Shown piece after piece: positions 846 to 25,760 of a DNA stretch of 52,481 nucleotides. The stretch spans positions 1 to 52,481 of the IMG/VR virus record IMGVR_UViG_3300033067_000224, one strand, 5' to 3'. The DNA is from a virus (Duplodnaviria; Caudoviricetes). The notes beneath the pieces were generated by a model that was not told the DNA's origin, did no database searches, and saw nothing but the letters and a program-made list of their open reading frames with translations. The stretch's first letter is position 1, and each line of letters begins with the position of its first letter. The position numbers were made by a program, and so were the translations under genes.

Positions 846-1556
846 ATGAACACACCGCAAGCTACCAGCTGGTCATTCAGCCGTCTCGCCGACTTCACCC
901 GCTGTAAGCTGGCGTTCAAGATCAAACACATTGACCGAGTGCCAGAGCCAGAGCGTCCGCTCCCCAAAGGCAAGACCGAACACGGCAACGATAGGGGGAC
1001 AAGAGTCCACGACAACATCGAGGGCTTCATCCGTGGCGAACACGACGATCTGTGCCCCGAGGCTGAGAAACACTACGGCGCATTCATCGACCTGCTGCGC
1101 ACGATGTACGCAGACAAGATGGTCGAGCTCGAAGGTGAATGGGCGTTCGACAAAGAGTGGGCACCAGCTGACTGGAAGGAAGGCTGGCTCCGTCTGAAGC
1201 TCGACGTCCTGATCCACCTCTCCACCACCCAGGCATATGTCATCGATTGGAAGACCGGCAGGCACTTCGGGAATGAAGTGACCCACGGCAACCAGCTGAA
1301 CCTCTACGCCATGTGCACCTTCTTGCGCTACCCGCAGCTCGAAGAAATCTGGGTGGCCGACTACTACATCGACCACGGGCATGAGACCGAGCGCCAATTC
1401 ACACGAGAGCAGGCGCTGAAGTACATGCGGACATTCGACAAACAAGGGAACGCGATCACGAACTGTGTGTCGTTCCCACCTAACGCCAACCGATTTAGTT
1501 GCCAGTGGTGTCCTTGGATGGACACAGGCCACTGCACCGTGGGCGTCAAGAAATAA
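846..1556 (+). CDS. PD-(D/E)XK Cas4-like exonuclease
   Basis: WSFSRL...C at the N-terminus, RGT.VH, LKLDV..IDWKTG, QL.LYA, and C-terminal C.WC.....C; ATG at 846 preferred over TTG at 819. Confidence 0.85.
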   Translation: MNTPQATSWSFSRLADFTRCKLAFKIKHIDRVPEPERPLPKGKTEHGNDRGTRVHDNIEGFIRGEHDDLCPEAEKHYGAFIDLLRTMYADKMVELEGEWAFDKEWAPADWKEGWLRLKLDVLIHLSTTQAYVIDWKTGRHFGNEVTHGNQLNLYAMCTFLRYPQLEEIWVADYYIDHGHETERQFTREQALKYMRTFDKQGNAITNCVSFPPNANRFSCQWCPWMDTGHCTVGVKK

Positions 1557-1812
1557 CTGAAGCCCCTCCGAGAGATAGGAGGACGTTGATCCGATCTGTT
1601 GGATGGTGCGTCTGAGAACAGAGCGGACCTTTACAGGGGTATCTCGAATGCATAACGCGCGCGCTGTAGAGGACATCCTTCAACCTTGCGTCGGGCAGGG
1701 AACGCATAACCCGACAAATTAGAGCAGCAGCACTCCAAACGTGCGGTGGCTGTGCTGGGCGTAACCGACGCGCCCACCTTTCCTATCAACCTAATTTCCT
1801 AGTAACCTAGCT

Positions 1813-1947
1813 ATGAACTACCAACGCATTTACACCCTGCTTGCCGTACGTGGACACTTCAACGCAAGTCAGACGACCCAGGAGATCGCTACCTCCGCTA
1901 ATAACACCCCATCAACGATTCGCCGGTGGTTGAAAGTGGCAGCATGA
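1813..1947 (+). CDS. Small helix-turn-helix protein (44 aa; absent from the ORF track)
   Basis: Hand translation MNYQRIYTLLAVRGHFNASQTTQEIATSANNTPSTIRRWLKVAA; HTH-like T.QEIA......STIRRWL; stop overlaps the next start as ATGA (1944-1947). Confidence 0.65.
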   Translation: MNYQRIYTLLAVRGHFNASQTTQEIATSANNTPSTIRRWLKVAA

Positions 1948-2195
1948 AGCTCACGACCGAAAAACCAACCCAGGAAACAAAATACCGCGTTGTTGTGCTG
2001 GACGTGGAGGGCTACGAAATCAGCGATCGACCAGCTACCAATCTCAAAGAAGCCAAGGCGGAAATGGCATACGTACTCAGCGATGAGTACGCCCAAGCTG
2101 CGGAGACTACTCACGAAATCATGGGCACCCATAAAGCCGAAGTGCGCAATGCTAAAGAGGAATGCCTTCTTGACGCCTATTTCATCCGAGGATAA
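1944..2195 (+). CDS. Hypothetical protein
   Basis: ATG at 1944 is coupled to the upstream stop; in frame with track ORF 1926..2195. Confidence 0.7.
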   Translation: MKLTTEKPTQETKYRVVVLDVEGYEISDRPATNLKEAKAEMAYVLSDEYAQAAETTHEIMGTHKAEVRNAKEECLLDAYFIRG

Positions 2196-2198
2196 AAC

Positions 2199-2618
2199 AT
2201 GGATACTAAAGAACACCAAGCCGAGCGGCACTTAGTGCAAAAACGCCGCCGAGCCAAAGTCGGCGAGGGGGGTCCGACGAGAAAACTTAAGGAGATCATT
2301 GAGGCTTCCGCCAAGGAACATTTTGATGCGAAGACAGTAGCCGATATTAATATCTTCTTGCCCCCACCTGTATGGAGGCGGTGTAGATGCGATGTGCATC
2401 TGATCGACGGCAATATGCGGGTGGACGGTCGCTTAGTCTCGTTCGGCTCCTGGGCCTGCGTTTCAGAACTAATCAAATACCACCGTGTCACATGGGGTAA
2501 CGATTGGCCCGTCCCCGATATGAGCCCCATTTATGAAACTAGGCGGACTCGCACCAGGGCGAACTTGGGTGTACTGCATAGGCCATCCGGAGGAGCCGAC
2601 ACTCCGATCGCTTCTTAG
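2199..2618 (+). CDS. Hypothetical protein
   Basis: 139-aa ORF with GAGGA RBS; fills the gap between co-oriented genes. Confidence 0.6.
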   Translation: MDTKEHQAERHLVQKRRRAKVGEGGPTRKLKEIIEASAKEHFDAKTVADINIFLPPPVWRRCRCDVHLIDGNMRVDGRLVSFGSWACVSELIKYHRVTWGNDWPVPDMSPIYETRRTRTRANLGVLHRPSGGADTPIAS

Positions 2619-2626
2619 GAGGGACT

Positions 2627-2959
2627 ATGCGGATCATCATCGAGACCCAAGACAAAAAGACGATCGCCAGGATCAACGAGATCCTGCCGCAGTTTATGGA
2701 GTTCATCGCCAACCAGGGGCGACCAGAACCCCACCGGGCTGTTATGCCCACCCCCCCCGGCCATGTGTTCGAACTCGACGAACGCTACCTGTCGACCAGG
2801 ACGATCAACGCCCTAAAGATGGAGGGCATCTACGACCTCCGCAAGCTCGTCAGGTACTCAGCGGCTGAGCTGCGGCGCAAGCCCCGGTTCGGATCGAAAG
2901 CGATCATGGAGATCAACGACCTACTGAACGGTAACGGGATGAAACTGCAAGATGATTAA
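2627..2959 (+). CDS. RNA polymerase alpha-subunit C-terminal-domain-like protein
   Basis: LSTRTINALKMEGIYDLRKLVRYSAAELRRKPRFGSKAIMEINDLL matches the RpoA CTD pattern (L.VR..NCL....I..I.DL....E.EL.K..N.G.KS..EI...L); AGGAGG RBS. Confidence 0.85.
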   Translation: MRIIIETQDKKTIARINEILPQFMEFIANQGRPEPHRAVMPTPPGHVFELDERYLSTRTINALKMEGIYDLRKLVRYSAAELRRKPRFGSKAIMEINDLLNGNGMKLQDD

Positions 2960-4325
2960 ACCCTACGCACACCAGCTTCAGTCTCTGAAACACAACGACA
3001 AGACACCCATCGTTTTTGACTGCAGTGACCCTGGAACTGGGAAGACTATGGTGCGCATCCTGGCGTTCGCAAAACGCCGTGCTGCAGGGAGTGGATGTCT
3101 GTTGGTACTCGCCCCACGATCCCTACTACGTACTGTGTGGGTGAACGACATCGCCAAATTCGCTCCACATCTCACAGTCAGTGTCGCAGATGCTTCAAAC
3201 CGAGATAAAGCATTCGCCGCAAACGTAGATGTGTACATTACAAACACCGATGCAACCAAGTGGCTATCAACCAAAAAAGCACCGTTCTTCGCCAGATTCA
3301 GTGAGCTCGTGGTCGATGAGTCGACTGCGTACAAACACCACACCAGCTTCAGGAGCAAAGCGCTCGCCAAGATCGCCAAGTATTTCGACTACCGCTGCTG
3401 CATGACGGGCACCCCCAACGGCAACAGTATCACCGACGTATGGCACCAGGTGTTCATCCTCGATGATGGCGAACGCCTCGGCAAGAGCTTCTACGCCTTC
3501 AGAGACAGCGTCTGCGCCCCCAAGCAGGTGGGGCCGAATGCGAACGCGATGAAGTGGACAGACAAGGAAGGCGCCGAGGAAGCTGTCTATGGCCTGCTGT
3601 CTGACATCGTAATCAGACACAAGTTCGAAGACTGCGTCGGCATACCTCCGAACCACACATACTCCCTGGAATATGACCTCAGCCCGAAGCAGCTCAAGGC
3701 TTACGCCGAGCTTGAATCGACTCAGCTCCTGACCCTACAGAAACAGGAGATCCTGGCCATCAACGCCGCTGCGGTGGCGACGAAGCTCCTGCAGGTGGCG
3801 AGTGGGTCAGTGTATGGCAGCACTGGCAAGCACGTGACCGTTGATACCACCCGCTACGAGCTCGTGCTCGATCTGGTAGAACAGCGACAGCACAGCTTCG
3901 TGCTGTTCCTCTGGAAACACCAGCGGAACGCTCTAGTAGCTGAGGCTCAGAAGCGTGGTGTCACCCATGCGGTGCTCGATGGCGACACCTCAGACGCTGA
4001 CCGTGAGCAGCTGGTCAATGCCTACCAGGCTGGCAAGTACCAGGTGCTCTTCGGCCACCCAAAGACCGTGGCGCATGGGGTCACGCTGACTAGGGGGACG
4101 GCCACGATCTGGGCATCACCCACCTACGACCTGGAGCTGTTTGCCCAGGGCAGTAAACGGCAGCACCGCATAGGGCAGACGCAAAAGACCGAAACTATCG
4201 TCATCGTGGCGAAAGGCACGATCGAGGAGAAGGTCTGGGAGATCCTGGAGGGCAAGAACAAGCGGATGCGCAATCTTCTTGACCTCTTCGGCACGTTGAA
4301 CAAGGAGGAAACATGCCAGCAGTGA
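2952..4325 (+). CDS. SNF2-family (SF2) helicase
   Basis: PYAHQ Q-motif, DPGTGKT Walker A, VVDES Walker B, MTGTP motif III, HGVTLT motif V, RQHRIGQ motif VI. Confidence 0.92.
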   Translation: MIKPYAHQLQSLKHNDKTPIVFDCSDPGTGKTMVRILAFAKRRAAGSGCLLVLAPRSLLRTVWVNDIAKFAPHLTVSVADASNRDKAFAANVDVYITNTDATKWLSTKKAPFFARFSELVVDESTAYKHHTSFRSKALAKIAKYFDYRCCMTGTPNGNSITDVWHQVFILDDGERLGKSFYAFRDSVCAPKQVGPNANAMKWTDKEGAEEAVYGLLSDIVIRHKFEDCVGIPPNHTYSLEYDLSPKQLKAYAELESTQLLTLQKQEILAINAAAVATKLLQVASGSVYGSTGKHVTVDTTRYELVLDLVEQRQHSFVLFLWKHQRNALVAEAQKRGVTHAVLDGDTSDADREQLVNAYQAGKYQVLFGHPKTVAHGVTLTRGTATIWASPTYDLELFAQGSKRQHRIGQTQKTETIVIVAKGTIEEKVWEILEGKNKRMRNLLDLFGTLNKEETCQQ

Positions 4326-4555: not shown

Positions 4556-4755
4556 ATGCACTGGAGACATTGGCAGACTATCGTGAGGCTGAACAAGCTG
4601 CTTTTAGAAAGCAGAATAAAGCCTTGAGGAGAACCATGATTTTGAAGTTGTACGCCGCAGAAGAGTTTGCTGAATTTTTCGACGACAACCGCAACATGTT
4701 TTGTGAAATCGTTAATCTACTACTGGAACGCGAAAATGCCCCCACACACCCCTGA
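4552..4755 (+). CDS. Hypothetical protein
   Basis: MNALETLADY...; ATGA coupling at 4552-4555 and AAGGAG RBS (the track start at 4393 is too far upstream). Confidence 0.65.
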   Translation: MNALETLADYREAEQAAFRKQNKALRRTMILKLYAAEEFAEFFDDNRNMFCEIVNLLLERENAPTHP

Positions 4756-7678
4756 CTGGTCCCGCCTCGTCTCGATTGACTTCGAAACGTACTACGACCA
4801 GGACTACACCCTCAAGAAACTCTCCACATCTGAGTACATCCGTGACCCACGGTTCAAAGCTCAGATGATGGGGATCAAGATCGGAAATGGAAAAACGAGG
4901 ATCATCCCCCATGCGAAAATCGCGCAGGAGCTCAGCAAGATCAATTGGGCGACCCATAGCCTCCTCTGTCACAACACTGCTTTCGACGGCTTCATCCTTA
5001 GCCACCACTATGGGGTTGTGCCCGCCTACTACTACGACACCCTCAGCATGGCGCGGGGGCTCCACAGTAACGAGATTGGGGCGGGCCTCGATGAAGTCAG
5101 CGTCTTCTATGGCGGTCACGGGAAGCTGGAAGGGCTAGAGAACACCTGCGGCGTTTTAGATTGGAGCAAGGAGCTGTTCGCTGCTACTGCGGTCTACTGT
5201 GCGAACGACGTGGACGAGATGGTCCGTGTTTTTAAGCTCATGCTCCCGCAAATGCCAAGCGATGAAATGGACCTCATCAACCTCACCTGCCGCATGTTCT
5301 GCGACCCGGTGCTGAGGGTCGACATCCCACGGGTGGAGGCTGAACTCAAGCGCGAGCTCGATCGGCGCGAGGAGCTTCTAACATCTATCGTAGATCTTGA
5401 CTGCTATGACCCTAAAAAGCTGCTCAAGGGCAAAGAGCGTCAACTGGTCGGCAAAGAGCGCGACATGCTCATGGTCAAGCGGATCATCGGTTCCGCCGAG
5501 TGTTTCGCTGATCTACTCAGAGATGAAGACATCGAGCCTCCGGTAAAGATCAGCCCTGCGTGGATGAAGCTGCCCCGAGAAGAGCGCGAGAGCGAAGAGG
5601 GCTTGAAGCGCAAATACACATATGCGTTCGCCAAGGACGATCACAAGTTCACTGATCTGCCCAACAAGACGGAGGACTGGGGGTTCGACCTGAACAACCC
5701 AGACCACGTCGAAGCGATGGTAGAAAAACAAGAGCGCATCCAGGCGCTGGTTGACAGCCGGATCATCACGAAGTCCACGACGAATGTGACTCGAGCTGAG
5801 CGTTTCCTGAAAGCAGGAGCTGACGGGATGCCGCTGCCGGTGGGGTATGCGTACTACCGGGCACACACGGGGCGCTACGGTGGCACGAACAAGATGAACT
5901 TTCAGAACCTCCCGCGTGGTGGGGAGCTGCGGCTGTCGATCTTGGCACCGAAGGGGCACATGATCGCTGTCGTTGACTCCGGCCAGATCGAAGCACGGGT
6001 GAACGCCTGGCTGTGGGGGCAAAACGACCTGCTCGATGCATTCCGCGCCGCTGACAACGGCACTGGACGTGATGCCTATTGCAACTTCGCTGACCACATC
6101 TACGGACGTGAGATCACGAAGACCGACGCGGTCGAGAGACAAGTCGGCAAGGTTGCAGTGCTGGGCCTGGGCTACCAAATGGGTGCCGCGAAGTTCCAGA
6201 CGACTCTGGCCAAGAGCAAGATCTACTTCGAGCTCGACCGCTGCAAGGAGATCGTCACCACGTACCGCGAGGTGAACAACCGGATTGCAAACGGCTGGCG
6301 GTTCTGTGACCGGATCATCAACGATATGTTCGCTGGACGTACCGGGCACCATGGGCCAATCGCCTGGGAGAAGGAAACAATCTTTCTGCCAAACGGCATG
6401 AGGTTGAAATACCCAGACCTCAAGAAGACGATGGGCGACAACGACTATCCTGAGTGGACGTACCAGTCAAAGGACATCAGAAAGAAGATGTATGGAGGTT
6501 TGCTCTGTCTCGGCGCGAGCACGCAAGTGCTTACTGATCGCGGATGGCTGTCTATCATCGAAGTTAGACGGCGTGATAAACTATGGGATGGAATTAACTG
6601 GGTTGACCATTCAGGCTTAGTTTTTCAAGGGGTCAAAGAGACCATCGATTTTGGCGGCGTCGACATGACTCCCGAGCATGAAGTGCTGGTCGACGGTGAC
6701 TGGCATGCAGCACAGGACACAACATACAATGAAGCTACATCATCGTTCACGCGACATCACCGGACTCCGGATGGGTATGATGACCGCAACGAAACCATTG
6801 GGCAGCGACGGAAAAAAGACTCTCTGGTACATAGCTTGCGACTGCGGGCAAACAAGAATACTGCCCGCCTCCGAGTTCTTGAAGGGCAGCACAAAGAGTT
6901 GCGGGTGCTCGACTGGAAAGTTTCTATCCGCCGCACATACGACCCACGGGATGTCACGGCACCCAGCATTTCATGTCTGGCGGGGCATGTTGGATCGATG
7001 CAGGTTACCGACACATCAGTCGTGGGCGAGATACGGAGGACGCGGCATAACGGTGTGCGAACGCTGGAAAAAGTTCGCCGCGTTCTGGGAGGACATGGGC
7101 GAGACTTACCAGAAGGGTCTGGACCTGGATCGGATCGACAACATGCAGGGATACAGCCCAGAAAACTGCAGATGGACAGATCGAAAAACAAACACTCGCA
7201 ACACCAGGGTCGGGGTAGTAATAGATACGCCTCTCGGCGCGATGCGCTTGTGGGAAGCAGCCGAGGTATCAGGGATTGGAAATACAACTCTGCTGTATCG
7301 CAGGAACGCAGGTTGGCCGGCGCACCGGATGTTCGACAAACCGGACCCAACGAACAGGCTGTCTTCGACCTCGTAGATGCTGGGCCTCTAAAACGTTTCA
7401 CAGTGCGCGGGGCTGACGGCAAACCATTTCTCGTTCATAACTGCGAGAACGTAATCCAAGCCTTGGCCCGAATAGTCGTCATGTGGCAGATGCTGCAGGT
7501 CGACAAGAAGTACCGCGTCGTAATGACGACGCACGATGAGTTTGCGTGTGTCGTGAAAAAATCTCAGGCTGAAAAGTGCCTGGAGCTCATGACCCAATGG
7601 ATGAAGACACCACCCGACTGGTGCCCAGACTTACCACTTAACTCTGAAGGAAAGGTTGACGTAAATTACAGCAAGTGA
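4736..7678 (+). CDS. Family A DNA polymerase (3'-5' exonuclease + polymerase) containing an intein
   Basis: IDFETYY (ExoI), HNTAFD (ExoII), YCANDV (ExoIII), HTGRYGG, NFQNLPR, VDSGQIEARV (motif A), RQVGKVAVLGLGYQMG (motif B), THDE (motif C); ATG at 4736 preferred over TTG at 4667. Confidence 0.95.
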   Translation: MPPHTPDWSRLVSIDFETYYDQDYTLKKLSTSEYIRDPRFKAQMMGIKIGNGKTRIIPHAKIAQELSKINWATHSLLCHNTAFDGFILSHHYGVVPAYYYDTLSMARGLHSNEIGAGLDEVSVFYGGHGKLEGLENTCGVLDWSKELFAATAVYCANDVDEMVRVFKLMLPQMPSDEMDLINLTCRMFCDPVLRVDIPRVEAELKRELDRREELLTSIVDLDCYDPKKLLKGKERQLVGKERDMLMVKRIIGSAECFADLLRDEDIEPPVKISPAWMKLPREERESEEGLKRKYTYAFAKDDHKFTDLPNKTEDWGFDLNNPDHVEAMVEKQERIQALVDSRIITKSTTNVTRAERFLKAGADGMPLPVGYAYYRAHTGRYGGTNKMNFQNLPRGGELRLSILAPKGHMIAVVDSGQIEARVNAWLWGQNDLLDAFRAADNGTGRDAYCNFADHIYGREITKTDAVERQVGKVAVLGLGYQMGAAKFQTTLAKSKIYFELDRCKEIVTTYREVNNRIANGWRFCDRIINDMFAGRTGHHGPIAWEKETIFLPNGMRLKYPDLKKTMGDNDYPEWTYQSKDIRKKMYGGLLCLGASTQVLTDRGWLSIIEVRRRDKLWDGINWVDHSGLVFQGVKETIDFGGVDMTPEHEVLVDGDWHAAQDTTYNEATSSFTRHHRTPDGYDDRNETIGQRRKKDSLVHSLRLRANKNTARLRVLEGQHKELRVLDWKVSIRRTYDPRDVTAPSISCLAGHVGSMQVTDTSVVGEIRRTRHNGVRTLEKVRRVLGGHGRDLPEGSGPGSDRQHAGIQPRKLQMDRSKNKHSQHQGRGSNRYASRRDALVGSSRGIRDWKYNSAVSQERRLAGAPDVRQTGPNEQAVFDLVDAGPLKRFTVRGADGKPFLVHNCENVIQALARIVVMWQMLQVDKKYRVVMTTHDEFACVVKKSQAEKCLELMTQWMKTPPDWCPDLPLNSEGKVDVNYSK
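5377..5394 (+). promoter_or_regulatory. 18-bp motif copy (TCTAACATCTATCGTAGA), inside the polymerase gene
   Basis: Matches the consensus; uses CTA/ACA/GTA codons in a GC3-rich gene. Confidence 0.55.
6506..7441 (+). mobile_element. Intein (312 aa) in the DNA polymerase
   Basis: Block A CLGASTQVLTDRGW, block B MTPEHEVLV, block F VFDLVDAGPLKRFTV, block G FLVHN followed by a +1 Cys; removal restores YGGLL-CENVIQALAR, the conserved phage PolA YGG.L.EN..QA.AR motif. Confidence 0.95.
6729..7376 (+). CDS. HNH-type homing endonuclease nested in the intein, in the +1 frame
   Basis: CDCG...KSCGC, W..M..RC......YGGRGITVCERW..F..F..DMG, LDRIDN..GYSPENCRW...N.RN and a C-terminal HTH-like segment; ATG at 6729 with AGGA at 6714-6717. 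Confidence 0.9.
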   Translation: MKLHHRSRDITGLRMGMMTATKPLGSDGKKTLWYIACDCGQTRILPASEFLKGSTKSCGCSTGKFLSAAHTTHGMSRHPAFHVWRGMLDRCRLPTHQSWARYGGRGITVCERWKKFAAFWEDMGETYQKGLDLDRIDNMQGYSPENCRWTDRKTNTRNTRVGVVIDTPLGAMRLWEAAEVSGIGNTTLLYRRNAGWPAHRMFDKPDPTNRLSSTS

Positions 7679-7708
7679 TCTAGCATCTAACCAAGACAGT
7701 ATTACAAT
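7679..7708 (+). promoter_or_regulatory. 18-bp motif copy (TCTAGCATCTAACCAAGA) followed by a -10-like TACAAT
   Basis: Motif at 7679-7696 directly after the pol stop; TACAAT at 7703-7708, upstream of the RBS GAGGA. Confidence 0.6.
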
Positions 7709-7724
7709 CTCGAGGAACCACACC

Positions 7725-8153
7725 ATGTCCGAAGTTGCCGAACGACCGAAAACTAAAACCGCCATGCCCCTGACTCTTGGCCAAGCAGCCGACAAGATAT
7801 TCGACCTGCGCGAGAAGAAGCGCAAGATCGAAGCAGACCTCAAAGAGGTCGAGGCCGACATCTCACATCTGACCGAGACGATCTTCGGCTTGCTCGAAGA
7901 GCAAGACACCCGCAAGGCCGAAGGCAAGAAGGCCAGCATCTCCGTGAACTACGCGATCAACCCATCTACCAAGAATTGGGACGACACCGCGAAGTTCATC
8001 ATCAACGGCAAACGTGGCGACAAGTACGCCTTCGCCCACCTCCTCTACAAACGCATCGTGGCGCCAGCCTATCGCGAGTTGCGTAGCCTTGGGATGGTCA
8101 TCCCTGGGCAAGAAGATTTCACCAACAGGACTCTGTCCATCACCAAGCTCTGA
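7725..8153 (+). CDS. Phage protein of the replication module (N-terminal coiled coil)
   Basis: 142 aa with GAGGA RBS, between pol and the SSB-like gene; contains a motif copy at 7861-7878 (TCTCACATCTGACCGAGA). Confidence 0.8.
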   Translation: MSEVAERPKTKTAMPLTLGQAADKIFDLREKKRKIEADLKEVEADISHLTETIFGLLEEQDTRKAEGKKASISVNYAINPSTKNWDDTAKFIINGKRGDKYAFAHLLYKRIVAPAYRELRSLGMVIPGQEDFTNRTLSITKL

Positions 8154-16940: not shown

Positions 16941-19900
16941 TCAGCCGCCCGCGAGCTGCTTCACAACAGGCAGTGACTGCTTGACTGCATGTCCGACTTC
17001 ACCAGTGATGATGTCTTTGCCAACACCAGCGATGTGGTCGACCGTCGGGCCAGCAAGAGTGCCTGCAACATTTCCGCCGAGCATGTCAGTGATGAACGAT
17101 GATGTACCACCGATGCCTGAGCGGTTAATGCCGTGGCTGATCCAATCGACGAGTGTCCAGTTCGCCATGTACCCAGGCATCGACCCACCACCGGTCACCA
17201 TCGCCTTCATCATGTCCGACACGATCATGATCGGCACACCGTGCAGTAGTCGTGCGGCTGCGCTGAAGTTCCCATGCTCCGCTTCGTGCATTGCGTAACG
17301 CATCGTCGTCTCTTGGAACGCATACGTGAACGACTTGAACTGGTAGAACATTGCAAAGTGCGGGTCGCTCGCGCGTGTCGGCCTCAACCCTGCATTCGGT
17401 GACACGATCGCACGGTTGACCCAGCGGTTGACTGCGAAGTGCGTGGGCTCGAGCAACTTCTGTGCGACGGCCACGTCCTTTATCTTTTTCATCTTCATCA
17501 GCTCAGCAGCACTGACGACCAGCTGACCCTGGTCATTGATGAATATGTCACTCTTCTTCAGCCCGAGCTCACGCAGCCACCGAGCGCTGTGCTCTGGCAC
17601 TGCGTTGTTGTAGTCCCGCACGATTGCTTTGCGCGCTGCGTCGGTCGCAACGATGCGCATGTCACGGTCCCACTGTGTAATGCCGATGGCCTTGAAGAAC
17701 ACGTGGTTGATGTGCCGGGTCAGACCTGATGAATACTCCGACGAATGGACCTCGCCCATCTCTTCGTTCTCCATGTCGCTGTTGATCACCCCGGACGCCA
17801 GCGCAGCCTTCTCCATGTCGTCTGGGTCTCTCATCCCGAACGGATTGCCCAGGAACAAATCCTTCCAGTTGTTCCACAGTCCGGTGAACCCGCGCTTGTA
17901 TGCGTTGAACATGTCTTCCCATTCCCCGCCAGCCACGCGGATGCCGTTCGCATCGAGCATCGAGCTGAAGATCATCAGTGGCAGCAGGCGCACGATCTGG
18001 TAAGTCATGGCCCCAGCCTGGAGCTGCCGGGCTGTAGCCGAGATATCCTTGCCCAAGGAGCCCTCCATAGCCCCGCTGGCTCGTTTTAAGTCCTCCATCC
18101 GACGCTCCACCCACTCCTCGCGCTTCGAGGGCTCTACGGCCTTATTTTCAGCCTCCGTGGCCAGCTCTGAGCGGATGGGGCCATCCTTCTCGTACTTGAT
18201 CACTGTGCCGTCCTCCGAGATGAACCGCACGTCGCCCTTCTTTGCCAGCATGTCTTTGAGGCCAATCCCGTCCTCATCGAACGTGCGGGTGTACTCCGCA
18301 GCCCGCACGCCCTGGCTGATGTACTGGGTCATCGTCCCGATCACATCCTTGCTCAAGTATGGGGCCACATCCTCATCCGCCAGCCACTCCAGCGTACGCT
18401 CGTTCATTGACGCAAAGAATGGACTGAGCACGCCGTCCTCGCGCAACGCCTTGAGCTTGTGGTCGCTCACCCCCAGCCGATCAATCAGACTCTGGTGGAT
18501 CATCTCGGCCACGTCGCGCTCGGTGACGATGCCCGACTCACCAGCCTGGATCGCTCCGGCCTTGATCGTCGTCATCAGCTTGCCGTGCTTCGCCAGCAGC
18601 ATGTTGACGAACGACTCCCTACCGTTGATGAGCTTCTCGATCTCGTACACGCGCGGCCAGTATTTACCGTCGGCACCCAGCTGCTCACCGATGTCGAGCC
18701 CAGCCTGCTTCGCGTAGGTTCTGTACTCCGTCAACACGCCCTGCAGATTCTTCTTCGCCTTGCGCAAAATTTCAGTCGTCGGCTCCGTGTGGCTGTTCAA
18801 CGCCTCGGCCAGAGTCTCAAGGTCTCGCTTCAGGTTCGCACCCTGCAGCGGCTTGAGCGCCACGCGAATCCGGTTGCTATAGTAGTTGCGTTTGAACCGC
18901 GTGCGGTTTATCACCCCATCCTGACCCTTCACCTGCTCGGTGTCGGCGCCATAGGCTGGGTTCGAGTACCACATGCGCCCTAGCAGCTGAGCCGTCTTGC
19001 TCTCGCTGTTCCTGAAGTTCAGGTGGTTCGCCATCACCTCGGTGTACAGCGCCTGCGCCTGCTTGTCGTACTTCGCCAGCATCTTCTGGCGCCACTCGCC
19101 CTGGCTCATGATCTTCTCGATCGCCCGACCAGCAGCGCTCATCTCCTTGAGCTGGCCCTGGTCAAACGCGGTGAAGATCGCCAGTGCCTTCTCGCTGTCG
19201 CGCACGGCACCGAACACACGGCGCATCAGCGCCTGGACTTTTTCAAAGAAAGTCTTCGGCGCGTGGTCGATGTCCAGCAGCCCGAGCTTCCAGAATTGGA
19301 ACGCATAAGCCACGCGCTCCTCCGGGTCGTCCTCCATGCTCTTCAGCGCTGCGTCCTCACCCTTGAGCAGCTCCTTCACCCGGTCGTAGATCTTCGGGTC
19401 GCTCATCGCGCTGTGCAGCAGCTCCTTCGTCTTCTCCATCCCCTTGGCGTTCAGGATCGTGTTAAAGAATGCGTGCACAGACTCGTGGTACGCCAGCCGC
19501 ATGATGGTCAACGGGTTCGCTGTGCTGATGCGGGCGATGTTCGTGAGCGTGTCGAAGTCAGCCTTCCCGCCCTTCATGTCTGGGAACACGTCTTGCAGGA
19601 TCAGCTTCACCTTGTCGCTGACATTGCGCTCGAAATACTTGATCGCCGAAGTCACCTCGATGTGCTTCGGTGGCGCCATGGTGGCCAGCTTGGCGAACTG
19701 GTTCGCGGATTCTGCCTCGGTCTGACGGGCGATGGTTTCGGCGTTCCGCTTCACCGACCCCTGCGGCCCGAGCTTCGCCTCCAGGTGTTTGTCTGCTGCC
19801 GTCACCTCCTCAGCCGTCTTCACCAGCCGCCGCAGGCTGTCGATCATGTCCTGCAGCTCATCGCTCTGGTCAGTTTTAGCCCGCTCCCGGACCCTCTCCA

Positions 19901-22900
19901 GCTGCTTCGCCGCCCAGGTACCGATAGCTGCTGCACGCTCGGTGGTGTAGTCGGCAGGTGGGTTTTTGAGGTATTCCTGGTGCTTGGATATGGCCGCTCC
20001 GAGGGTATTCTGGCTACCTACCCCATCCGAAGCGGCTTTCGTCGCTCCAGGAGCCTGTATTGAGCTGCTAGGGGTATGTTTTCCGAGGTTTTCCACCTTC
20101 TGCTGCAGATAAGCGAGCGTTTTCGGTGCCCTTGTGGCTAGTTCAGCTCTGCCAGTACCGAGCCCGTCTGCCGGGATGACGACCTTGCCCTTGTGTGCCT
20201 CGATCTTGGCGAAATCTTCGTCGATCTTGGCTTTGTTCGCCTCGAACGTGGCATCTGACCAAAAGGCGTTTTCGCCCATATGTGGTGCAGCCTTCGTGCG
20301 TACCCCCACAGAGTTCGGCTCACCGCGCATGGCAGCGGCCTGTCCGCCCAGGCCAGTACGTCGGTCGTTGTCCCCGAACACAAACAGGGTGTCTGGCTCT
20401 GCACGGACCATATCACGGGTGATATTAGCGCGGCGCTCGGCGGTAGGCGCTACCTTGCTAGGCTCCTTTGTTTCTACCTGTCTAGGTTCCTTGGTCCCTA
20501 CCATCTGCCACGCCGAATAGTGATCGGTCGTGTACGCTTCGGTGTACCCCCCGTCGATCAGAGCCTGCCGCAACACCCCCTCCCCCTCAGCGTTATGGGC
20601 TCGGGTGGCGTTCGCACCACTGTCTGTACGTACAGTAGCCCCACGGTCGAGGGCCATCTTCACGTGCTCGATGATCTGGTTTACTCCGGTAAACCCTCGG
20701 CCTCTGCCTGGCACGCTCACCACCACGACCTTGCCGGTCATGTCTGCGTCATTCTTCGGGCTGAAGCGCTTGCCCTCAGCCTGAGCAGCCCTGCCGAGAT
20801 CTCCGGCGTAGCCCTCTGGGCTGATGGGGGCGATGATCCGGTCAGCACCCAGCAGCTTCGCCGTTTCCTTCGGTTGGTGGGCACCCGGCGCCTTGGGCGG
20901 GGTCTTGAGTAGCGGGGGGGATACCCTGGGGGATACCTCGCTAGGTTCCTTGGTCTCTACCTGTCTAGGTTCTTTTTTGGGAGCACCGAGCTCTCTGACG
21001 GCAGTCATCGTGTCTTTCTCGCCACGCTTCTCGCCGTCGAATTTCGCACCCAGGTTAGGCACAGTGAGTACCCCCTGGTTCTTGTCAACCAGCCCCCGCA
21101 GGAACCGCTTCATGCCACCTTTAGGCACGAACGACGTAGCCACAGGTGCCAGCTTCGACCGCTCCAGCAGCGCTCTGCCCCCAGGCTTAACAGCCTCGTC
21201 CAACTTCTCGGCCTTCTTCTGGTCGTTGTACCCAGACAAGAAGTTCACCAGCTTACGCACCTGCCCCACATCCAGCACAGGTGGCAGCCTTGGAGTCTTC
21301 GGGTCCGGCAGGGCGGCGCGCATGATCTCGGCGGCCACGGCTGAGCGCAGATGCTTGAACATCGCCTGATCATCAGGGTGAGCGTTCGCAATGTTCCTGG
21401 GGGTCAGCAGCGCAGCCAGCGGGAAGGCGTACTGGGTGCCCCCTACCCCCCAGTGGCCTGCCTCTTTAGGCTCGGCGGCTTTATCACTGAGGACTTTTCC
21501 AACGTTCGCTGCCTCGTCGGTCTCGGCCTCCGTCGCGTGGAGCTCACGCCACAACTCCCCCAGCTCTTTGCTGTACCCGTAGCTGTCGTCTGTGGAGGGG
21601 CGGCGCATGCTGCGCACATAGCCGAAGATCCTCTCGAGGCCCGCTTCGCGGTTCGCTGCGTAGTCCCGCCACAGCTGCTCGGCTACTTTCCCAGCCTTGT
21701 TGACGGCAGCACCGACGGTGAGCGCCTTCGGCAGGTGGTCAGCGGCTGCGCGCATCACGCTGGACATCAGCTTCAGGTGCTTGCGCTCTTCCTCTCTGGT
21801 GCGTGAGCCCTGGTCGATGGCCATCGCCTCATCGACGGCCTCTTCACCCTGGACATCCTTCTCATCCTGGGAGAGCTCGGCATTCTTCTCCTCCTCGGCC
21901 TTGGCGTTGATCAGCCCCTGGTTGTGGACCTCCTCAGAGCTGGCCGCGCCGCGCTTGTGCATGGCGCCATACGCCTTGCTGCGTTTGTACTCCGCGTAGC
22001 TGGTCCCGCCCACATCCAGCGACGGAGGCAGGTCACCCAGGCCTGCCTGCGCCCAGCCGTTCTCGACCTCAGTCTTTCCGGCTTTGCGGTAGGACATTTC
22101 TCTGCCGACGTTGTAGTCCTTGTCTGGCCCCAGGCTCGTGACGCGGTCACCGAAATCGTCGGTAAAAGTCTTCGTGCTTGACTTCGTCGGCGCCCAGCGA
22201 GTCCCAAAGTCATCCACGGTCCCACCAACAGGCTCACCCTTCGTGTCTGCGGGGCTAAACTCTTCCCGCTCGCCCTTGGCGTTCATAATCCACGGCAGGC
22301 CCTTAGTCAGACCCCCCATGTGCAGCGCAGTAATGCCCTGCTTCAGCGCGTCGAGGTAGCTGTCGTACTGCGCGTTCGGCGAGCCACTCCCGGTGTCGTT
22401 CTCTCGTTTGTCGTCAGTATGGGCATTCTCCTGCTCCCTTACCCACTTCACCAGCTTGTACGCCGGTATGGCGACCTCACCTGTGTTCGAGTGCCGGCTC
22501 TTAAAGTGGATGATGTTCATCCCGGCCTTGACCTTGGCCTGCTCCGCCTTGTCGTCTCCGGCAGTCACCCAGGCCGAATTTAAGTGCGCCGCACCCTTCT
22601 TGGCCATGTCGTTGAGCTCAGCCAGGTTCATCTGCAGGTAGTCGCGGTCTGTCGGTTGTTCGGCTACCACGGCATAGCGCTGGCTGAAGAAGTGGTTGAC
22701 GTAGTCCTTGAGGTCGGCGTTCGGGTTCTTGGCCGCGAACTCCTGATAGCCAGGGATGTTCCTCGCCAAGGACTCACGGGCGGTCTCCACAGCGCTCTTG
22801 ACGATGGGCACCATCGCAGCCATGCGCGCCCCGAGGTCTGGTATGGCTGCCAGCTCGCTGTACTTGCTCGACTTCTTGGCCACACTCAGCACAGCGTCAA

Positions 22901-25760
22901 GATCACCTCGTGTCTGGTTCAGCTCGGCGTTCTGGTCAATGCTCAACTTCTCACCGCTAGGGCTGAGGGATTCGCGCTTGCCCAGGACAGAGCTGATGTA
23001 AGCACGTGCGCGCTCAGCTACATTGAGGTTACTGATGGCATGGGCGACCTCGCCGGGGACTTCAGCCTTCCCCTCCTGCTCCATGTACCGCATCATCAGC
23101 TTCAGCCGCTGGTCGTCGGGCACGCCCGAGTCGTCGAGGATCTTCTTCGCGTTCGTAGCTCCGGCAGCCTCCATCGGGTCTTTCGAAGCGGGGTTGCCCA
23201 TGGAGTACCTGTCACGCTGCTCTGGCCCGAGCCGCTCGGTAGCCTTCGCTACGAGCTGCTGAACATGCCCGAGGGTCTGTTCCTGGGTCTGCCCCTCGCC
23301 AGGGTAGATCAGCTTCGGCAACCGGCCATCGTCATTCTCTTTCCACGCATCAGAAAACTTCACCATCGACCCGCGCTTGTCACCACTGACGTGGAACACG
23401 AGAGAGTCCCGGTCCATGCTCTTTTCGAGCTGTCGCTGGTCGAAGGCGCTTACTTCTTCGTCAGATGTTAGATCACGAACGTCAGCAGCTGACTGCTCGG
23501 TGTCGTGCGTTCCCTCCGTGTCCGTCGCCTGGGTCTTGCTGCCATAGCTGTCGTTCTCGTCGATCGGGTCGTCCCTAACGCCCTCCAGGCGCGGCATGAG
23601 TGTCTTGCCCAAGTAGCTCTCCATCGCATCGACGACGGGCTTGGTGAGCAGCGCGTTTATCTTCATGCGGCTGAAGATCGCCTTACCATCGCTAAACGCC
23701 TCCATATTGTCGAGCAGGTCGTTGCGGTCTTTGTTAGAGCTGAGATTAATACCTTTGGCAAGCAGCTGAGTCTCTACATCGGCTGGCACCAGCTTGGCGA
23801 ATTCTTCGGCTGCAGCGTCGCGGGTGTCGTGCTGGACTTTCAGAGCAGAGCTGTTCGTGGCCCCCAGGTAGGACGATGCAGCTTGGACGATACCCTTGAG
23901 GGCCATCGTGCTGCCAGTGATGCGGTTGATGTCGGTCAGGACATCTATTGCCTTCGTCCCCACAGTCTGCACGAGCTGTTCAGCCAGGCGCTCAGCCCGG
24001 CGCCCTTCGGCAGGCGTGGGGTTGTCGACCGTAGCGGCAGCGGTCAGCTCCTGGGCAAGACCTCTGACGATACCCACGGCCTGGGGGTCGCCTTGTCGGA
24101 CCCTGGATGGCTCCAGGGCACCCTCGGCGTCCACCTCGTAGCCGTGCTCATCGGTATAGGCGTTCCACAGCTTGTTCGCCACCAGCTCAGCACGGGTGTT
24201 GAAGAGCTTGGCCTTGTTCTGTGCCTGCTCGAGCCTGGCCTTGTTCGCAGCCGCGCGCTCGTTGATCGTCTTGCCGGTCACTCCCTGCTCAGGCTCACCC
24301 GTCGTGAACATGTCGGGGGTGAGGTCGAACGTGAACTCTTTCGGGTCGATGACCCTGCTGGGGGTGGACTCAACCTCCTCGGCTTCGGCCCACCTCTCCA
24401 CAGAACCTTCTGGTATCGGAAATGTGTCGCTCAGACGCTGCTGCCCGTCGGGACGCTCCGCGTTGTTCTTCATCCGAGCGAGCTCTGCATTCGTGATGTG
24501 CAACTTCTGCATCACAAACTTGGCGGCGTCGAGGAATTCAGGGGCACCGAGATTCTTGATGGCGTTGAGCGGGTCGTCGACAGGGATACCACTTACCTTC
24601 TGCAGGTGTTCTTCGGCCTCTTTCCCTTTGAGCTTGCTGAGTTCTTCTACCAGCACACTCTTCTGCCGCGCAGCAGCCTCCGGTATTTTTGCCGGGTCTT
24701 CTGTGTGCCCCTCCAACGCTTGCACGAGTGCCTCGGCTTCGGTGCGTCTACTGAACCGACTTACCCCACCGTTGAGTTCCTCAAGGATAGTCTTCGGCTT
24801 CTCATCCGGGGCGTTCAGGTCTATCACGTCGCCGTTCTTGCCGTCGCCTTCGGTGCGCCCCCGACTCCACATCTTCTCACCATAGTGCCCGACCGCACCC
24901 ATGCCGCCGCCACCGATAGCACCGCCCAGCCCGCTGTTGATCAGCTCGGACATGTCACCGGAGGTGTCGCGCTCAGGGTTCAGCTGGCTGTGCGCCCGCT
25001 GCTGGCTGTACTGTTGCCCCGTCTCTGTCAACCCCTCACCGATTGCTTCGCCCAGGAGCTTCGCGCTCGTAGGCATCCGCCCGAGAACCTTACCGGCTAC
25101 GCCTGACAACTGCCCGACGGGCAGCAGCTGCGGCAGAGTGTCGAGCACCGCAGCTCGGTAGCCGTGCTTCGAGACTTCATCCCTAATGTCCTGGGCCGAC
25201 CGCTGCATCGCTACCGGGTCGTCAGCAATCTCGTTGTACGCCTCGCCCGTCAGGAGGTTCTTATTCTGGCGGTACATCTCCAGCGGAGCGGCACCGCGCA
25301 GTCCCCAGGCTATGGCCTGAGCTGCTGGGTGAGGGATCAGCCCGGCGATGCCAGAGGCCAGCCCCATAGCCGAGCCTGTGGCCATCTGATCGATGGACGA
25401 CCCAGCCGCTTGCCCGAGCTGTCCGGCGACGTAGCTGGCTGCGTCACCCAGGCCGTGCACATCCTCGTAGCGGCTAGGTGCGGTGGCGAACACCTCCCCC
25501 TGGTCTCTCAGTGAGCGGATTCTGGCGCGCAGCAGGGCGGCTTTCTCCAGGCTCTGACGGTCGGCTGCGGCCCGCAGTAGGGACTCTTCGTCGCCGAGCA
25601 GATTCCTCTCGTTCGAGATGCGGGATCCCCGGAACGAGTTCGTGAATGAATTGCCCCCGGCAGCTTCGGCCTGGAGGGTGGCGAGGATGTTCGCCTCATC
25701 ATCGGGAACGAGGGTGACCCCGTCATAAGGGTCGTAGTCGCGCAGAGAAGAGTATCCCAT
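16941..25760 (-). CDS. Giant (2939 aa) internal virion / DNA-ejection protein with accessory enzymatic domains
   Basis: Last gene of the structural arm, with AAGGA RBS; HExxH (YHESVH) at about 19475-19490; FVFGDN..G.GGQA macro-like domain at about 20090-20440; C-terminal FYQFKSF and hydrophobic tail typical of podovirus ejection proteins; motif copy at 23455-23472. Confidence 0.8.
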   Translation of the reverse strand: MGYSSLRDYDPYDGVTLVPDDEANILATLQAEAAGGNSFTNSFRGSRISNERNLLGDEESLLRAAADRQSLEKAALLRARIRSLRDQGEVFATAPSRYEDVHGLGDAASYVAGQLGQAAGSSIDQMATGSAMGLASGIAGLIPHPAAQAIAWGLRGAAPLEMYRQNKNLLTGEAYNEIADDPVAMQRSAQDIRDEVSKHGYRAAVLDTLPQLLPVGQLSGVAGKVLGRMPTSAKLLGEAIGEGLTETGQQYSQQRAHSQLNPERDTSGDMSELINSGLGGAIGGGGMGAVGHYGEKMWSRGRTEGDGKNGDVIDLNAPDEKPKTILEELNGGVSRFSRRTEAEALVQALEGHTEDPAKIPEAAARQKSVLVEELSKLKGKEAEEHLQKVSGIPVDDPLNAIKNLGAPEFLDAAKFVMQKLHITNAELARMKNNAERPDGQQRLSDTFPIPEGSVERWAEAEEVESTPSRVIDPKEFTFDLTPDMFTTGEPEQGVTGKTINERAAANKARLEQAQNKAKLFNTRAELVANKLWNAYTDEHGYEVDAEGALEPSRVRQGDPQAVGIVRGLAQELTAAATVDNPTPAEGRRAERLAEQLVQTVGTKAIDVLTDINRITGSTMALKGIVQAASSYLGATNSSALKVQHDTRDAAAEEFAKLVPADVETQLLAKGINLSSNKDRNDLLDNMEAFSDGKAIFSRMKINALLTKPVVDAMESYLGKTLMPRLEGVRDDPIDENDSYGSKTQATDTEGTHDTEQSAADVRDLTSDEEVSAFDQRQLEKSMDRDSLVFHVSGDKRGSMVKFSDAWKENDDGRLPKLIYPGEGQTQEQTLGHVQQLVAKATERLGPEQRDRYSMGNPASKDPMEAAGATNAKKILDDSGVPDDQRLKLMMRYMEQEGKAEVPGEVAHAISNLNVAERARAYISSVLGKRESLSPSGEKLSIDQNAELNQTRGDLDAVLSVAKKSSKYSELAAIPDLGARMAAMVPIVKSAVETARESLARNIPGYQEFAAKNPNADLKDYVNHFFSQRYAVVAEQPTDRDYLQMNLAELNDMAKKGAAHLNSAWVTAGDDKAEQAKVKAGMNIIHFKSRHSNTGEVAIPAYKLVKWVREQENAHTDDKRENDTGSGSPNAQYDSYLDALKQGITALHMGGLTKGLPWIMNAKGEREEFSPADTKGEPVGGTVDDFGTRWAPTKSSTKTFTDDFGDRVTSLGPDKDYNVGREMSYRKAGKTEVENGWAQAGLGDLPPSLDVGGTSYAEYKRSKAYGAMHKRGAASSEEVHNQGLINAKAEEEKNAELSQDEKDVQGEEAVDEAMAIDQGSRTREEERKHLKLMSSVMRAAADHLPKALTVGAAVNKAGKVAEQLWRDYAANREAGLERIFGYVRSMRRPSTDDSYGYSKELGELWRELHATEAETDEAANVGKVLSDKAAEPKEAGHWGVGGTQYAFPLAALLTPRNIANAHPDDQAMFKHLRSAVAAEIMRAALPDPKTPRLPPVLDVGQVRKLVNFLSGYNDQKKAEKLDEAVKPGGRALLERSKLAPVATSFVPKGGMKRFLRGLVDKNQGVLTVPNLGAKFDGEKRGEKDTMTAVRELGAPKKEPRQVETKEPSEVSPRVSPPLLKTPPKAPGAHQPKETAKLLGADRIIAPISPEGYAGDLGRAAQAEGKRFSPKNDADMTGKVVVVSVPGRGRGFTGVNQIIEHVKMALDRGATVRTDSGANATRAHNAEGEGVLRQALIDGGYTEAYTTDHYSAWQMVGTKEPRQVETKEPSKVAPTAERRANITRDMVRAEPDTLFVFGDNDRRTGLGGQAAAMRGEPNSVGVRTKAAPHMGENAFWSDATFEANKAKIDEDFAKIEAHKGKVVIPADGLGTGRAELATRAPKTLAYLQQKVENLGKHTPSSSIQAPGATKAASDGVGSQNTLGAAISKHQEYLKNPPADYTTERAAAIGTWAAKQLERVRERAKTDQSDELQDMIDSLRRLVKTAEEVTAADKHLEAKLGPQGSVKRNAETIARQTEAESANQFAKLATMAPPKHIEVTSAIKYFERNVSDKVKLILQDVFPDMKGGKADFDTLTNIARISTANPLTIMRLAYHESVHAFFNTILNAKGMEKTKELLHSAMSDPKIYDRVKELLKGEDAALKSMEDDPEERVAYAFQFWKLGLLDIDHAPKTFFEKVQALMRRVFGAVRDSEKALAIFTAFDQGQLKEMSAAGRAIEKIMSQGEWRQKMLAKYDKQAQALYTEVMANHLNFRNSESKTAQLLGRMWYSNPAYGADTEQVKGQDGVINRTRFKRNYYSNRIRVALKPLQGANLKRDLETLAEALNSHTEPTTEILRKAKKNLQGVLTEYRTYAKQAGLDIGEQLGADGKYWPRVYEIEKLINGRESFVNMLLAKHGKLMTTIKAGAIQAGESGIVTERDVAEMIHQSLIDRLGVSDHKLKALREDGVLSPFFASMNERTLEWLADEDVAPYLSKDVIGTMTQYISQGVRAAEYTRTFDEDGIGLKDMLAKKGDVRFISEDGTVIKYEKDGPIRSELATEAENKAVEPSKREEWVERRMEDLKRASGAMEGSLGKDISATARQLQAGAMTYQIVRLLPLMIFSSMLDANGIRVAGGEWEDMFNAYKRGFTGLWNNWKDLFLGNPFGMRDPDDMEKAALASGVINSDMENEEMGEVHSSEYSSGLTRHINHVFFKAIGITQWDRDMRIVATDAARKAIVRDYNNAVPEHSARWLRELGLKKSDIFINDQGQLVVSAAELMKMKKIKDVAVAQKLLEPTHFAVNRWVNRAIVSPNAGLRPTRASDPHFAMFYQFKSFTYAFQETTMRYAMHEAEHGNFSAAARLLHGVPIMIVSDMMKAMVTGGGSMPGYMANWTLVDWISHGINRSGIGGTSSFITDMLGGNVAGTLAGPTVDHIAGVGKDIITGEVGHAVKQSLPVVKQLAGG

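Follow-up and report, generated by a model that had tools for sequence, protein, structure and literature searches.

The 52,481-nucleotide IMG/VR virus record IMGVR_UViG_3300033067_000224 (Duplodnaviria; Caudoviricetes), a linear record of ~79% completeness that we refer to throughout as the window, encodes a family-A DNA polymerase whose reading frame contains an intein, and within that intein a second gene, encoding an HNH-like putative homing endonuclease, is written over the polymerase frame in the +1 register (Table 1). In the textbook intein the nuclease domain is nested in frame within the splicing domain. We conclude that the element in the window is very probably a mobile class-1 intein of a phage family-A polymerase in which the homing-nuclease gene is a separate +1 cistron, a design inherited within a family. 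More broadly, and with a confidence that goes only somewhat past even, we favor the view that the intein belongs to an old and large family, from phages and prophages, in which the nuclease is never an intein domain and is always a separately translated +1 or +2 overprint, taking its ribosome-binding site and start from the codons of block B, and with all stages of its history coexisting; out-of-frame coding would then be no rare accident but a stable design under selection, and a continuing source of split inteins. The first-pass annotation of this DNA knew of no standard class for the arrangement, and in this it needs correction: non-canonical inteins are in print, and the corresponding gene pair P45/P46 is annotated in phage APSE-1. 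The kind is thus known already; what the literature we searched does not contain is this nuclease type, its frames, its built-in translation signals and, most of all, a family of such size and uniformity.

Table 1. Polymerase, intein and nuclease features of the window, with profile support where available.
Feature	Position	Strand	Support
Family-A DNA polymerase precursor open reading frame (ORF), intein included, 1003 amino acids (aa)	4667..7678	+	PF00476, phrog_17 matches
N-extein, polymerase residues 1-613, ending ...KKMYGGLL	4667..6505	+	
Class-1 intein, 312 codons, polymerase frame; C1, T55-x-x-H58, D288, H311-N312	6506..7441	+	
N-terminal splicing region, blocks A and B: CLGASTQVLTDRGW ... 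MTPEHEVLV	6506..6715	+	N-block profile E 1.2e-33
Alternative upstream in-frame ATG of the nuclease ORF, less likely start	6678	+	
AGGA Shine-Dalgarno-like core, 11 nucleotides (nt) upstream of nuclease ATG 6729	6714..6717	+	
HNH-like (I-HmuI-like) putative homing endonuclease, +1 frame, 215 aa	6729..7376	+	PHROG matches
Polymerase-frame reading of the overlap, Arg/Gly/Ser-rich hydrophilic linker, 209 aa	6731..7357	+	
C-terminal splicing region, blocks F and G: VFDLVDAGPLKRFTVRGADGKPFLVHN	7355..7441	+	C-block profile E 2.8e-16
C-extein, first residue the +1 Cys (CENVIQALAR...), includes polymerase motif C (THDE)	7442..7678	+	

The polymerase ORF runs without interruption through the insert, as had been reported from the sequence, and matches DNA_pol_A (PF00476, E 1.5e-15) and the phrog_17 DNA polymerase family (3.1e-67); its true start is likely the ATG at 4736 (residue 24), because the alignments of its relatives begin only at residues 18-34. 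Using the N-extein as a query we recovered nine related viral contigs (the L002-L010 series), and compared their junctions by tblastn. Residue 613/614 is fused directly to residue 926/927 in seven of the nine (L002-L007 and L010), and the remaining two (L008 = L009) are also without an insert at the CEN site used in the window. These joins in the empty alleles therefore define 6506-7441 as an exact insertion of 312 codons, and they bear out the proposal that excision would restore the polymerase junction. The empty junction reads YGGLL/CEN(I/L)VQALAR or a near variant (a slash marking the joint), with a native Cys in five of the eight alleles read, and the insertion point lies in a conserved polymerase motif upstream of motif C.

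The residues expected of a class-1 splicing domain are present at the positions first assigned to them, with the C1 codon (TGT) at 6506-6508, the TPEH of block B at ~6667-6678, and the His-Asn at 7436-7441 followed by Cys at 7442-7444. C1, T55, H58, D288, H311 and N312 are invariant across an alignment of 25 members of the intein family, and the +1 residue is Cys in the window and in most relatives and Ser in a few. Protein splicing would join YGGLL to CENVIQALAR. Between the splicing blocks the polymerase frame is unrecognizable, as the first-pass annotation had stated: the translation of 6506-7441 finds only two weak N-terminal matches (7.6e-4 and 3.6e-3) and none in Pfam or NCBIfam, and its 209-aa middle has no family match in database profile searches. 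This middle contains 32 Arg, has a grand average of hydropathy of -1.15 and a net charge of +19, and 63% of its residues are disorder-promoting, a composition compatible with a flexible tether by which the two splicing halves could come together.

The same DNA read in the +1 frame, from 6678 or 6729 to 7376, matches PHROG families named 'HNH endonuclease' with E-values from 2.2e-55 to 5.3e-24 (phrog_374, 2.2e-55; phrog_3377, 4.6e-45; phrog_2081, 3.1e-33). It contains a CxC...CxC zinc motif, an LDRIDN...N...N motif and a C-terminal helix-turn-helix, and its N-terminus MKLHHRSRDITG aligns with the N-termini of free-standing homologues. The nuclease family consists of stand-alone proteins of ~210-230 aa, with 7943 matches among 8000 scored candidates and a best identity of 64%. 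Among 40 aligned members, HTH_8 is matched by 15 and HTH_psq by 13; His73, the CxC...CxC cysteines, N146 and N158 are among the invariant positions, and the window nuclease retains all 28 invariant residues of this alignment. Its GLxLDRID..N..W....N aligns to the GLVVDHKDGN...N..W....N of I-HmuI, an intron-encoded enzyme, and both proteins have a modular DNA-binding tail; the window nuclease differs from I-HmuI in having Arg in place of the general-base His, and an extra N-terminal CxC...CxC module. An Atlas search with the homologue P0009 returned I-HmuI_NUMOD-like and NUMOD1 clusters at scores of 0.89-0.90, which we treat as leads only.

A scan of viral contigs seeded by the N-terminal splicing motifs alone, and therefore blind to the frame of any nuclease, yielded 60 loci, which together with the window make 61 rows (nine of them exact duplicates) that were classified by profiles. 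A full-size intein with an intact +1 nuclease and no host-frame stop is found in 31 of the 61, and 11 others are alike except that the intact nuclease is in +2, mostly at the polymerase motif-B site HN/CGY(G/Q)xG; none of the 61 has an in-frame nuclease. Thirteen rows are mini-inteins of 120-180 aa, built of the two splicing parts and in some cases short remnants of the nuclease, two have one stop within the nuclease (the APSE-like viral contig L067, and L071), and there is one fractured gene (L048) and one HNH-deleted derivative (L047). Two rows fall outside these classes: L077, a short contig with mixed frames, and L101, where the nuclease start is guessed and the host frame has two stops. 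The host genes are family-A polymerases (at least three sites), SNF2 helicases, and one DEAD/ResIII helicase. In bacterial assemblies, 10 of 16 loci have a like layout and none is in frame, including loci in isolates of Alicyclobacillus tolerans and Morganella morganii; L110, L113-L115 and L117 were left unclassified. An apparent 442-aa intein in L047 was rejected as an artefact joining two mini-inteins.

The family is considerably larger than these loci. A host-frame profile built from three inteins matches 3036 cluster representatives at E <=1e-3 and 544 at E <=1e-30; among the best 150 representatives, a profile of the 'junk' middle alone matches 147 (median E 4e-48), and an in-frame nuclease match is absent from all 150. 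What makes the junk frame recognizable at all is the conserved gene that it shadows in a constant frame relation. Named phages with the arrangement are Shewanella phage SFCi1, Caulobacter phages GB2A, RW, RLK and KcrB, and the Hamiltonella APSE phages, and in 17 listed named-phage records the nuclease match falls under a 'DNA polymerase' coding sequence. BlastN of positions 6300-7600 against GenBank phages gave no match, and a viral-contig scan with the single intein sequence confirmed no relative; relatives were retrieved only by extein, nuclease or three-intein alignment queries.

Two of the relatives extend the range of hosts. L011, a distant family-A polymerase, has a +1 nuclease, and its insertion site lies three codons further downstream (VEN/C...HN/CVQALAR); in L008 (= L009) the overprinted intein sits in a SNF2 helicase. 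L008:1439-8444 (= L009) has four inserts across two adjacent replication genes: the helicase has an N-terminal intein-like insert (CVSADTEYL...) in addition to the HNH-overprinted intein, and in the polymerase one insert, ~287 aa long, lies near residue 430 (CLPGESEVL...) and the other is a motif-B mini-intein (CIAEGELVL...LVLN/C). Pfam has no match for two of these, the N-terminal helicase insert and the ~287-aa polymerase insert.

In a +1 overlap a host-frame stop can arise only where a T-ending nuclease codon precedes AA, AG or GA, and keeping the host frame open costs nothing at the protein level because each T-ending codon has a C-ending synonym. When the synonymous codons of the nuclease ORF were permuted, the polymerase frame was free of stops in 20 of 20,000 trials for the window, in 28 of 20,000 for L011, and in 0 of 20,000 for L008. 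In the window T is never the third base at the 49 'risk' junctions and is so at 27 of the 166 other junctions (Fisher p 9e-4), and it is likewise absent from the risk junctions of L011 (0/53) and L008 (0/64). Ten free-standing homologues, two of them with similar G+C, have 10-35 stops in the corresponding frame, and among 37 loci retrieved via the nuclease the -1 frame is open only in the four that are embedded in inteins. The host frame is open in all 27 of the intein examples tested, with 0-146 of 5,000 shuffles open, these frame counts being drawn from related sequences that are not independent events. The open polymerase frame is kept by selection, not chance, in agreement with the suggestion that the intein frame is held stop-free. 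A third long open frame of 221 aa lies antisense over nearly the whole overlap (6757-7422, minus strand), and is probably a by-product of the codon bias from the two sense frames; full-length antisense frames are open in up to 113 of 20,000 shuffles.

Constraint on amino acid sequence is distributed differently between the two frames. Among the window, L011 and L008 the nuclease-frame identities are 0.54/0.38/0.37, and the host-frame identities at the same columns are 0.26/0.15/0.14; within the overlap the third position of nuclease codons accumulates most differences, and within the splicing blocks the third position of host codons does so. In the pair L043 and L044, a gap-free alignment of 84.7% nucleotide identity, changes synonymous only for the nuclease and only for the host have a ratio of 48:20 across the overlap and of 3:31 across the splicing regions (contrast p 2.6e-9), and two further pairs show the same pattern, these being simple substitution counts and not an overlap-aware dN/dS model. 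In the overlap purifying selection tracks the nuclease frame, and in the splicing blocks it tracks the host frame. Both expectations for homologous inteins, that the two frames stay open and that constraint in the overlap follows the nuclease, are borne out by the survey of rows and by these counts. The view that the host-frame linker is a dispensable stretch discarded on splicing is strengthened by the mini-inteins without it, by the L047 deletion, and by a host-frame identity in the overlap that is half that of the nuclease frame.

The distribution of the intein is sporadic. The polymerases nearest to that of the window (89%, 76%, 74%, 74%, 72% and 69% identity) are without the intein, and polymerases at 61-64% identity (L043-L045) have it at the same site as the window, with N-terminal splicing blocks 73-75% and nucleases 64% identical to those of the window; elsewhere, polymerases only 33% identical carry nucleases that are 55% identical. 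In a nuclease tree of 67 rows (a quick search, midpoint-rooted, so that the order of events stays inferred), 24 +1 copies group with the fractured L048 in a supported clade (SH-aLRT 97) that nests within the free-standing genes, a second clade has 13 +2 and five +1 copies, and a third pair mixes +1 with +2; the subclades follow host gene and insertion site. Homologous inteins occupy two polymerase sites three codons apart, YGGLL/CEN (window 6506) and ...VEN/CVQALAR (L011:2088), and because both sites precede a Cys and the nuclease subclades mix them, there is a hint of short-range site jumps.

Coexisting in the family are the empty site, the mini-intein, the overprinted intein, the decaying nuclease, the nuclease-deleted intein, and a split intein fractured by an HNH gene. 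The last is L048:1456-4185, in which ORF 1456-3255 encodes PolA-N and the N-half of the intein, an HNH-like ORF occupies 3242-3880, and ORF 3877-4185, whose ATG lies in an ATGA overlap with the nuclease stop, encodes the C-half of the intein (MKVYDILNAGPRRRF...FIVSN/C) and PolA-C. In L047:1498-4563 a mini-intein at the same polymerase site as in L043 resembles a clean in-frame deletion of the nuclease region, with the deletion junction ...ARHYRAP/PQPPVAGSQ..., and a second mini-intein is present at the motif-B site; judged by its sequence, L047 is an HNH-deleted derivative of the L043 type. These observations fit a history in which a mini-intein captured a free-standing gene and the element then spread by homing, now and then changed frame or site, and decayed or fractured. 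The first-pass annotation had likewise proposed that a free-standing HNH gene invaded a mini-intein, and the large stand-alone family, the nested clades of the tree and the mini-inteins in 13 of the 61 rows all speak for it.

Quite apart from the relatedness of the sequences behind the frame counts, several observations weigh against our reading of a mobile intein with an active, separately translated nuclease, and these are considered here with the alternatives that they touch. An alternative that we regard as unlikely is that the element is a domesticated or decaying relic, in which the intein splices and the +1 ORF is inactive or limited to DNA binding. The residue at the position of the general-base His of I-HmuI ('DH') is Arg135 ('DR', window 7131-7133), invariant in 40 of 40 aligned nucleases, and the missing catalytic His is the main weak point of the nuclease activity reading. 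There is no Pfam HNH model among the 25 families listed for the 40 aligned members, NCBIfam has no match for the window nuclease (which with that of L074 was all that was scanned from the HNH clade), and the best solved-structure match of the nuclease profile is to I-HmuI (PDB 1u3e) at a marginal E of 0.031. Because of the PHROG names, the marginal I-HmuI match and the substitution of Arg for His, we use the label 'HNH-like putative homing endonuclease', and because of the Arg at the general-base position catalysis may be unusual or absent; what stands of the original description of an intact +1 HNH endonuclease is the intact 215-aa ORF and its PHROG matches, and the HNH identity is soft. The family also contains products of decay, in the two nucleases with one stop (L067 and L071), the 13 mini-inteins, and the deletion derivative L047. 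Set against a relic is the finding that the Arg is invariant also in thousands of free-standing homologues, and so is not a lesion of the window copy. The window ORF is intact in all 28 of its 28 invariant residues, substitutions favor the nuclease frame, and the sporadic occurrence across exteins, the better conservation of nuclease than polymerase, and embedded subclades that track insertion sites all weigh on the same side.

How the nuclease would be translated is suggested by its upstream sequence. The AGGA noted in the first-pass annotation as a candidate Shine-Dalgarno (SD) sequence is present, and the nuclease stop codon (7374-7376) lies within the C-terminal splicing region, the first 22 nt of which (from 7355) overlap the nuclease 3' end and stop. 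A GGAG, GAGG or AGGA core is found within -18..-5 of the profile-start codon in 19 of 21 close +1 relatives and at 43 of 425 out-of-frame ATGs in the upstream exteins (p ~1e-16), the SD counts again coming from related sequences and not from independent events. In the subgroup at the CVQALAR site a GAGGT core is formed by the His-Glu-Val codons of block B, and the nuclease ATG by the Asn/Asp and following (Asp) codons of 'LTNDGW'; in the window and in L043/L044 the nuclease starts 12 codons further on, behind AGGA or GAGGAG. An SD-preceded candidate start occurs in only five of the 10 loci of the +2 group, where start positions are first-ATG guesses, and the starts in a distant +1 group of four loci are likewise ambiguous. 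Because an SD core and start codon are common to most close relatives, independent expression of the nuclease is plausible, and internal initiation appears to be the best-supported route to it.

A very improbable alternative is that the nuclease is made by programmed frameshifting from the polymerase (+1 in, and -1 out or a stop at 7376), with no internal initiation. The ORF is on the same strand and mRNA as the polymerase, and the SD of the window is weak, with a 4-nt core and a long 11-nt spacing; the predicted RNA fold around the nuclease start has no special structure (z 0.39), and the only RNA-library evidence, from run X17, is one 260-nt contig (7078-7337) that may be DNA carry-over and is no proof of transcription. 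Against frameshifting are the own ATG or GTG with an SD core in those 19 of 21 close relatives, the alignment of the nuclease N-terminus with the N-termini of free-standing homologues, and the selection that keeps the unshifted frame open; no slippery site or structured element was seen, and in the fractured L048 the nuclease is plainly a separate gene.

Still less probable is that the insert is not protein-spliced, and is either tolerated as a loop in the polymerase or removed as RNA. Inserts of this kind exist, since Arsenault et al. 2025 (PMC11855218) describe, in the accessible part of that paper, ShiLan-type out-of-frame HNH ORFs in phage methylases whose host frame is stop-free; according to the same text these are without splicing domains and without a detectable ribosome-binding site, and are thought to be retained in the protein. 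In the window, by comparison, canonical intein blocks flank the ORF and an SD core lies upstream. The Pfam Hint and intein models miss the window insert at E up to 1, and the NCBIfam intein and Hint models do not match the single window sequence; the expectation that a profile search of both frames would find Hint at the ends of the polymerase frame and HNH only in +1 was thus realized in its second part, HNH-type matches being confined to +1, and not in its first, as far as Pfam Hint is concerned. Against these points, all class-1 catalytic residues are present and are invariant in 25 inteins with Cys or Ser at +1, and the profile of these 25 matches solved inteins in its N-terminal part (NEQ068, 5oxw, E 1.6e-5; the Mtu RecA intein PI-MtuI, 2.6e-5). 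Furthermore, the mini-inteins are made up of the two splicing parts, with nuclease remnants in some, the insert sits in a conserved polymerase motif, and Rfam finds no intron over 6000-8000, its sole match being a chance-level small RNA (E 0.47).

The frame relation is also reproduced in independent data. Twenty run rows from nine studies contain at least part of the stretch, and the contigs of three runs from three other studies cover 6300-7456/7700 with no gaps; that of run X4, from wastewater, spans 6300-7700 alone with three substitutions, none inside the intein. The substitutions seen in the runs outside the intein are at 7451, 7551 and 7586, all in the C-extein, and the only intein-internal difference in the runs examined is a minor C>T at 6765 in one low-depth contig of run X3. 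Runs X9 and X17 cover the region only partly, and the uncovered parts are uninformative. That two compensating indels near 6720 and 7350 conceal an ordinary in-frame HNH intein is a priori the simplest account of a metagenome contig in which the frame switches, and the short contig L077 does have splicing blocks and nuclease pieces in inconsistent frames, but we give it next to no credence in view of the gap-free contigs, of an open polymerase frame that would be a 0.1% accident were +1 the true frame, and of the same relation in 31 of 61 rows, in isolate genomes and in GenBank phages, with in-frame cases at 0/150 and 0/61. Two of the findings that the first-pass annotation had named as telling against its proposal, compensating indels and homologues that are all in frame, were thus not encountered.

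A mobile intein with a separately translated nuclease would work as follows. Ribosomes in the polymerase frame would make a precursor of N-extein, blocks A and B, ~209 aa of filler, blocks F and G, and C-extein, and the splicing halves would fold together, excise the insert, and join the exteins. Other ribosomes on the same mRNA would initiate at ATG 6729 behind the AGGA to make a free 215-aa HNH-like DNA-binding nuclease, which would cut or nick intein-less polymerase alleles, whereupon repair would copy the element in. In the overlap, selection acts on the nuclease frame, the polymerase frame being barred only from stop codons.

Non-canonical inteins have been described in two recent preprints, both of which cite Gorbalenya 1998 for them in the portions available. 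Gosselin, Arsenault & Gogarten (10.1101/2025.01.02.630785) report actinophage inteins with antisense LAGLIDADG, antisense Vsr-like and frame-3 endonuclease VII-like nucleases; in the accessible text HNH is listed only in frame and out-of-frame architectures are termed rare. Phillips, DeSimone & Gogarten (10.64898/2026.09.14.751524) report, in the part of the preprint available, a +2 LAGLIDADG ORF in the dnaX inteins of cyanobacteria, where purifying selection follows the frame of the nuclease. As far as these texts extend, the window intein is like the non-canonical inteins in that the nuclease ORF lies between the splicing blocks and off the intein frame, the host frame is uninterrupted with an unrecognizable middle, and a free-standing nuclease gene is proposed to have invaded an intein. 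It is unlike the published cases, to the same extent, in that the nuclease is HNH-like and in +1 (+2 in a sister lineage), and in that it and its relatives reside in the family-A polymerases and SNF2/DEAD helicases of environmental phages, in a family with 544 cluster representatives at E <=1e-30. A description of an out-of-frame HNH within an intein was not found in the searched literature, a search whose scope did not take in most subscription journals or paper supplements.

The closest annotated relative is the polymerase intein of phage APSE-1, which we take to be an InBase entry. P45 contains a homologous 306-aa intein at the same YGGxx/C...HN/CEN site, with a +1 nuclease profile score of 313 and no host-frame stop; the window nuclease is 46-52% identical to those of APSE-1, the Caulobacter phages and SFCi1. 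The nested P46 has been annotated in GenBank since the original APSE-1 record, and RefSeq has 'HNH endonuclease' under 'DNA polymerase'. P46 as annotated (L118; AF157835.1 29132-29554) is only the last 141 codons of the nuclease ORF; with the nuclease frame open from ...GKVHHRAKDITG, translation probably begins at a GTG, as in L065. The intein is differentially lost among APSE phages (PMC7313666, in the part available), and in the searchable text of papers no discussion of its out-of-frame nuclease was found.

Split inteins offer a further comparison. Dassa et al. 2009 (PMC2677866) describe split inteins whose halves are separated by free-standing GIY-YIG or Vsr-like nuclease genes, and their model, in the accessible text, predicts contiguous intermediates and possible gene fracture by HNH genes. 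The window resembles those fractured genes, as there described, in having a homing-nuclease gene at the intein endonuclease insertion point with its own translation signals. L048 is a case of a fractured gene within the present family, and the window is not: with a host frame free of stops, its intein is contiguous, and splicing would take place in cis.

Elsewhere in the window the + strand carries the replication module and the - strand the structural genes. A DNA helicase gene (2952-4325; phrog_62, 2.4e-100) lies directly upstream of the polymerase; the helicase directly upstream of the polymerase in L008 is the one with two inserts, and orthology between the two helicases is not assumed. 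A six-frame search of the whole window with the splicing-block and nuclease profiles found no match beyond the known intein. On the minus strand, 16941-25760 is a giant ORF of 2939 aa whose C-terminal part matches the virion structural protein phrog_30152 (2e-81), and its neighbor, a 1388-aa ORF at 32432-36598, matches baseplate and virion-protein families.

The preprints, in the portions available, treat out-of-frame intein nucleases as rare, and here a whole family has them, the overprint signature being present in 147 of the 150 best representatives. For annotation, the consequence is that gene callers overlook the nuclease and give a single long 'polymerase'; Shewanella phage SFCi1 and the Caulobacter phages are examples. 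The family includes culturable members, in the Caulobacter phages on CB15 and in Shewanella phage SFCi1, and provides a system for asking how two genes share the same DNA when one frame need only stay open, and how a selfish nuclease is translated inside an essential gene; L048 offers a route to asking how contiguous inteins become split inteins.

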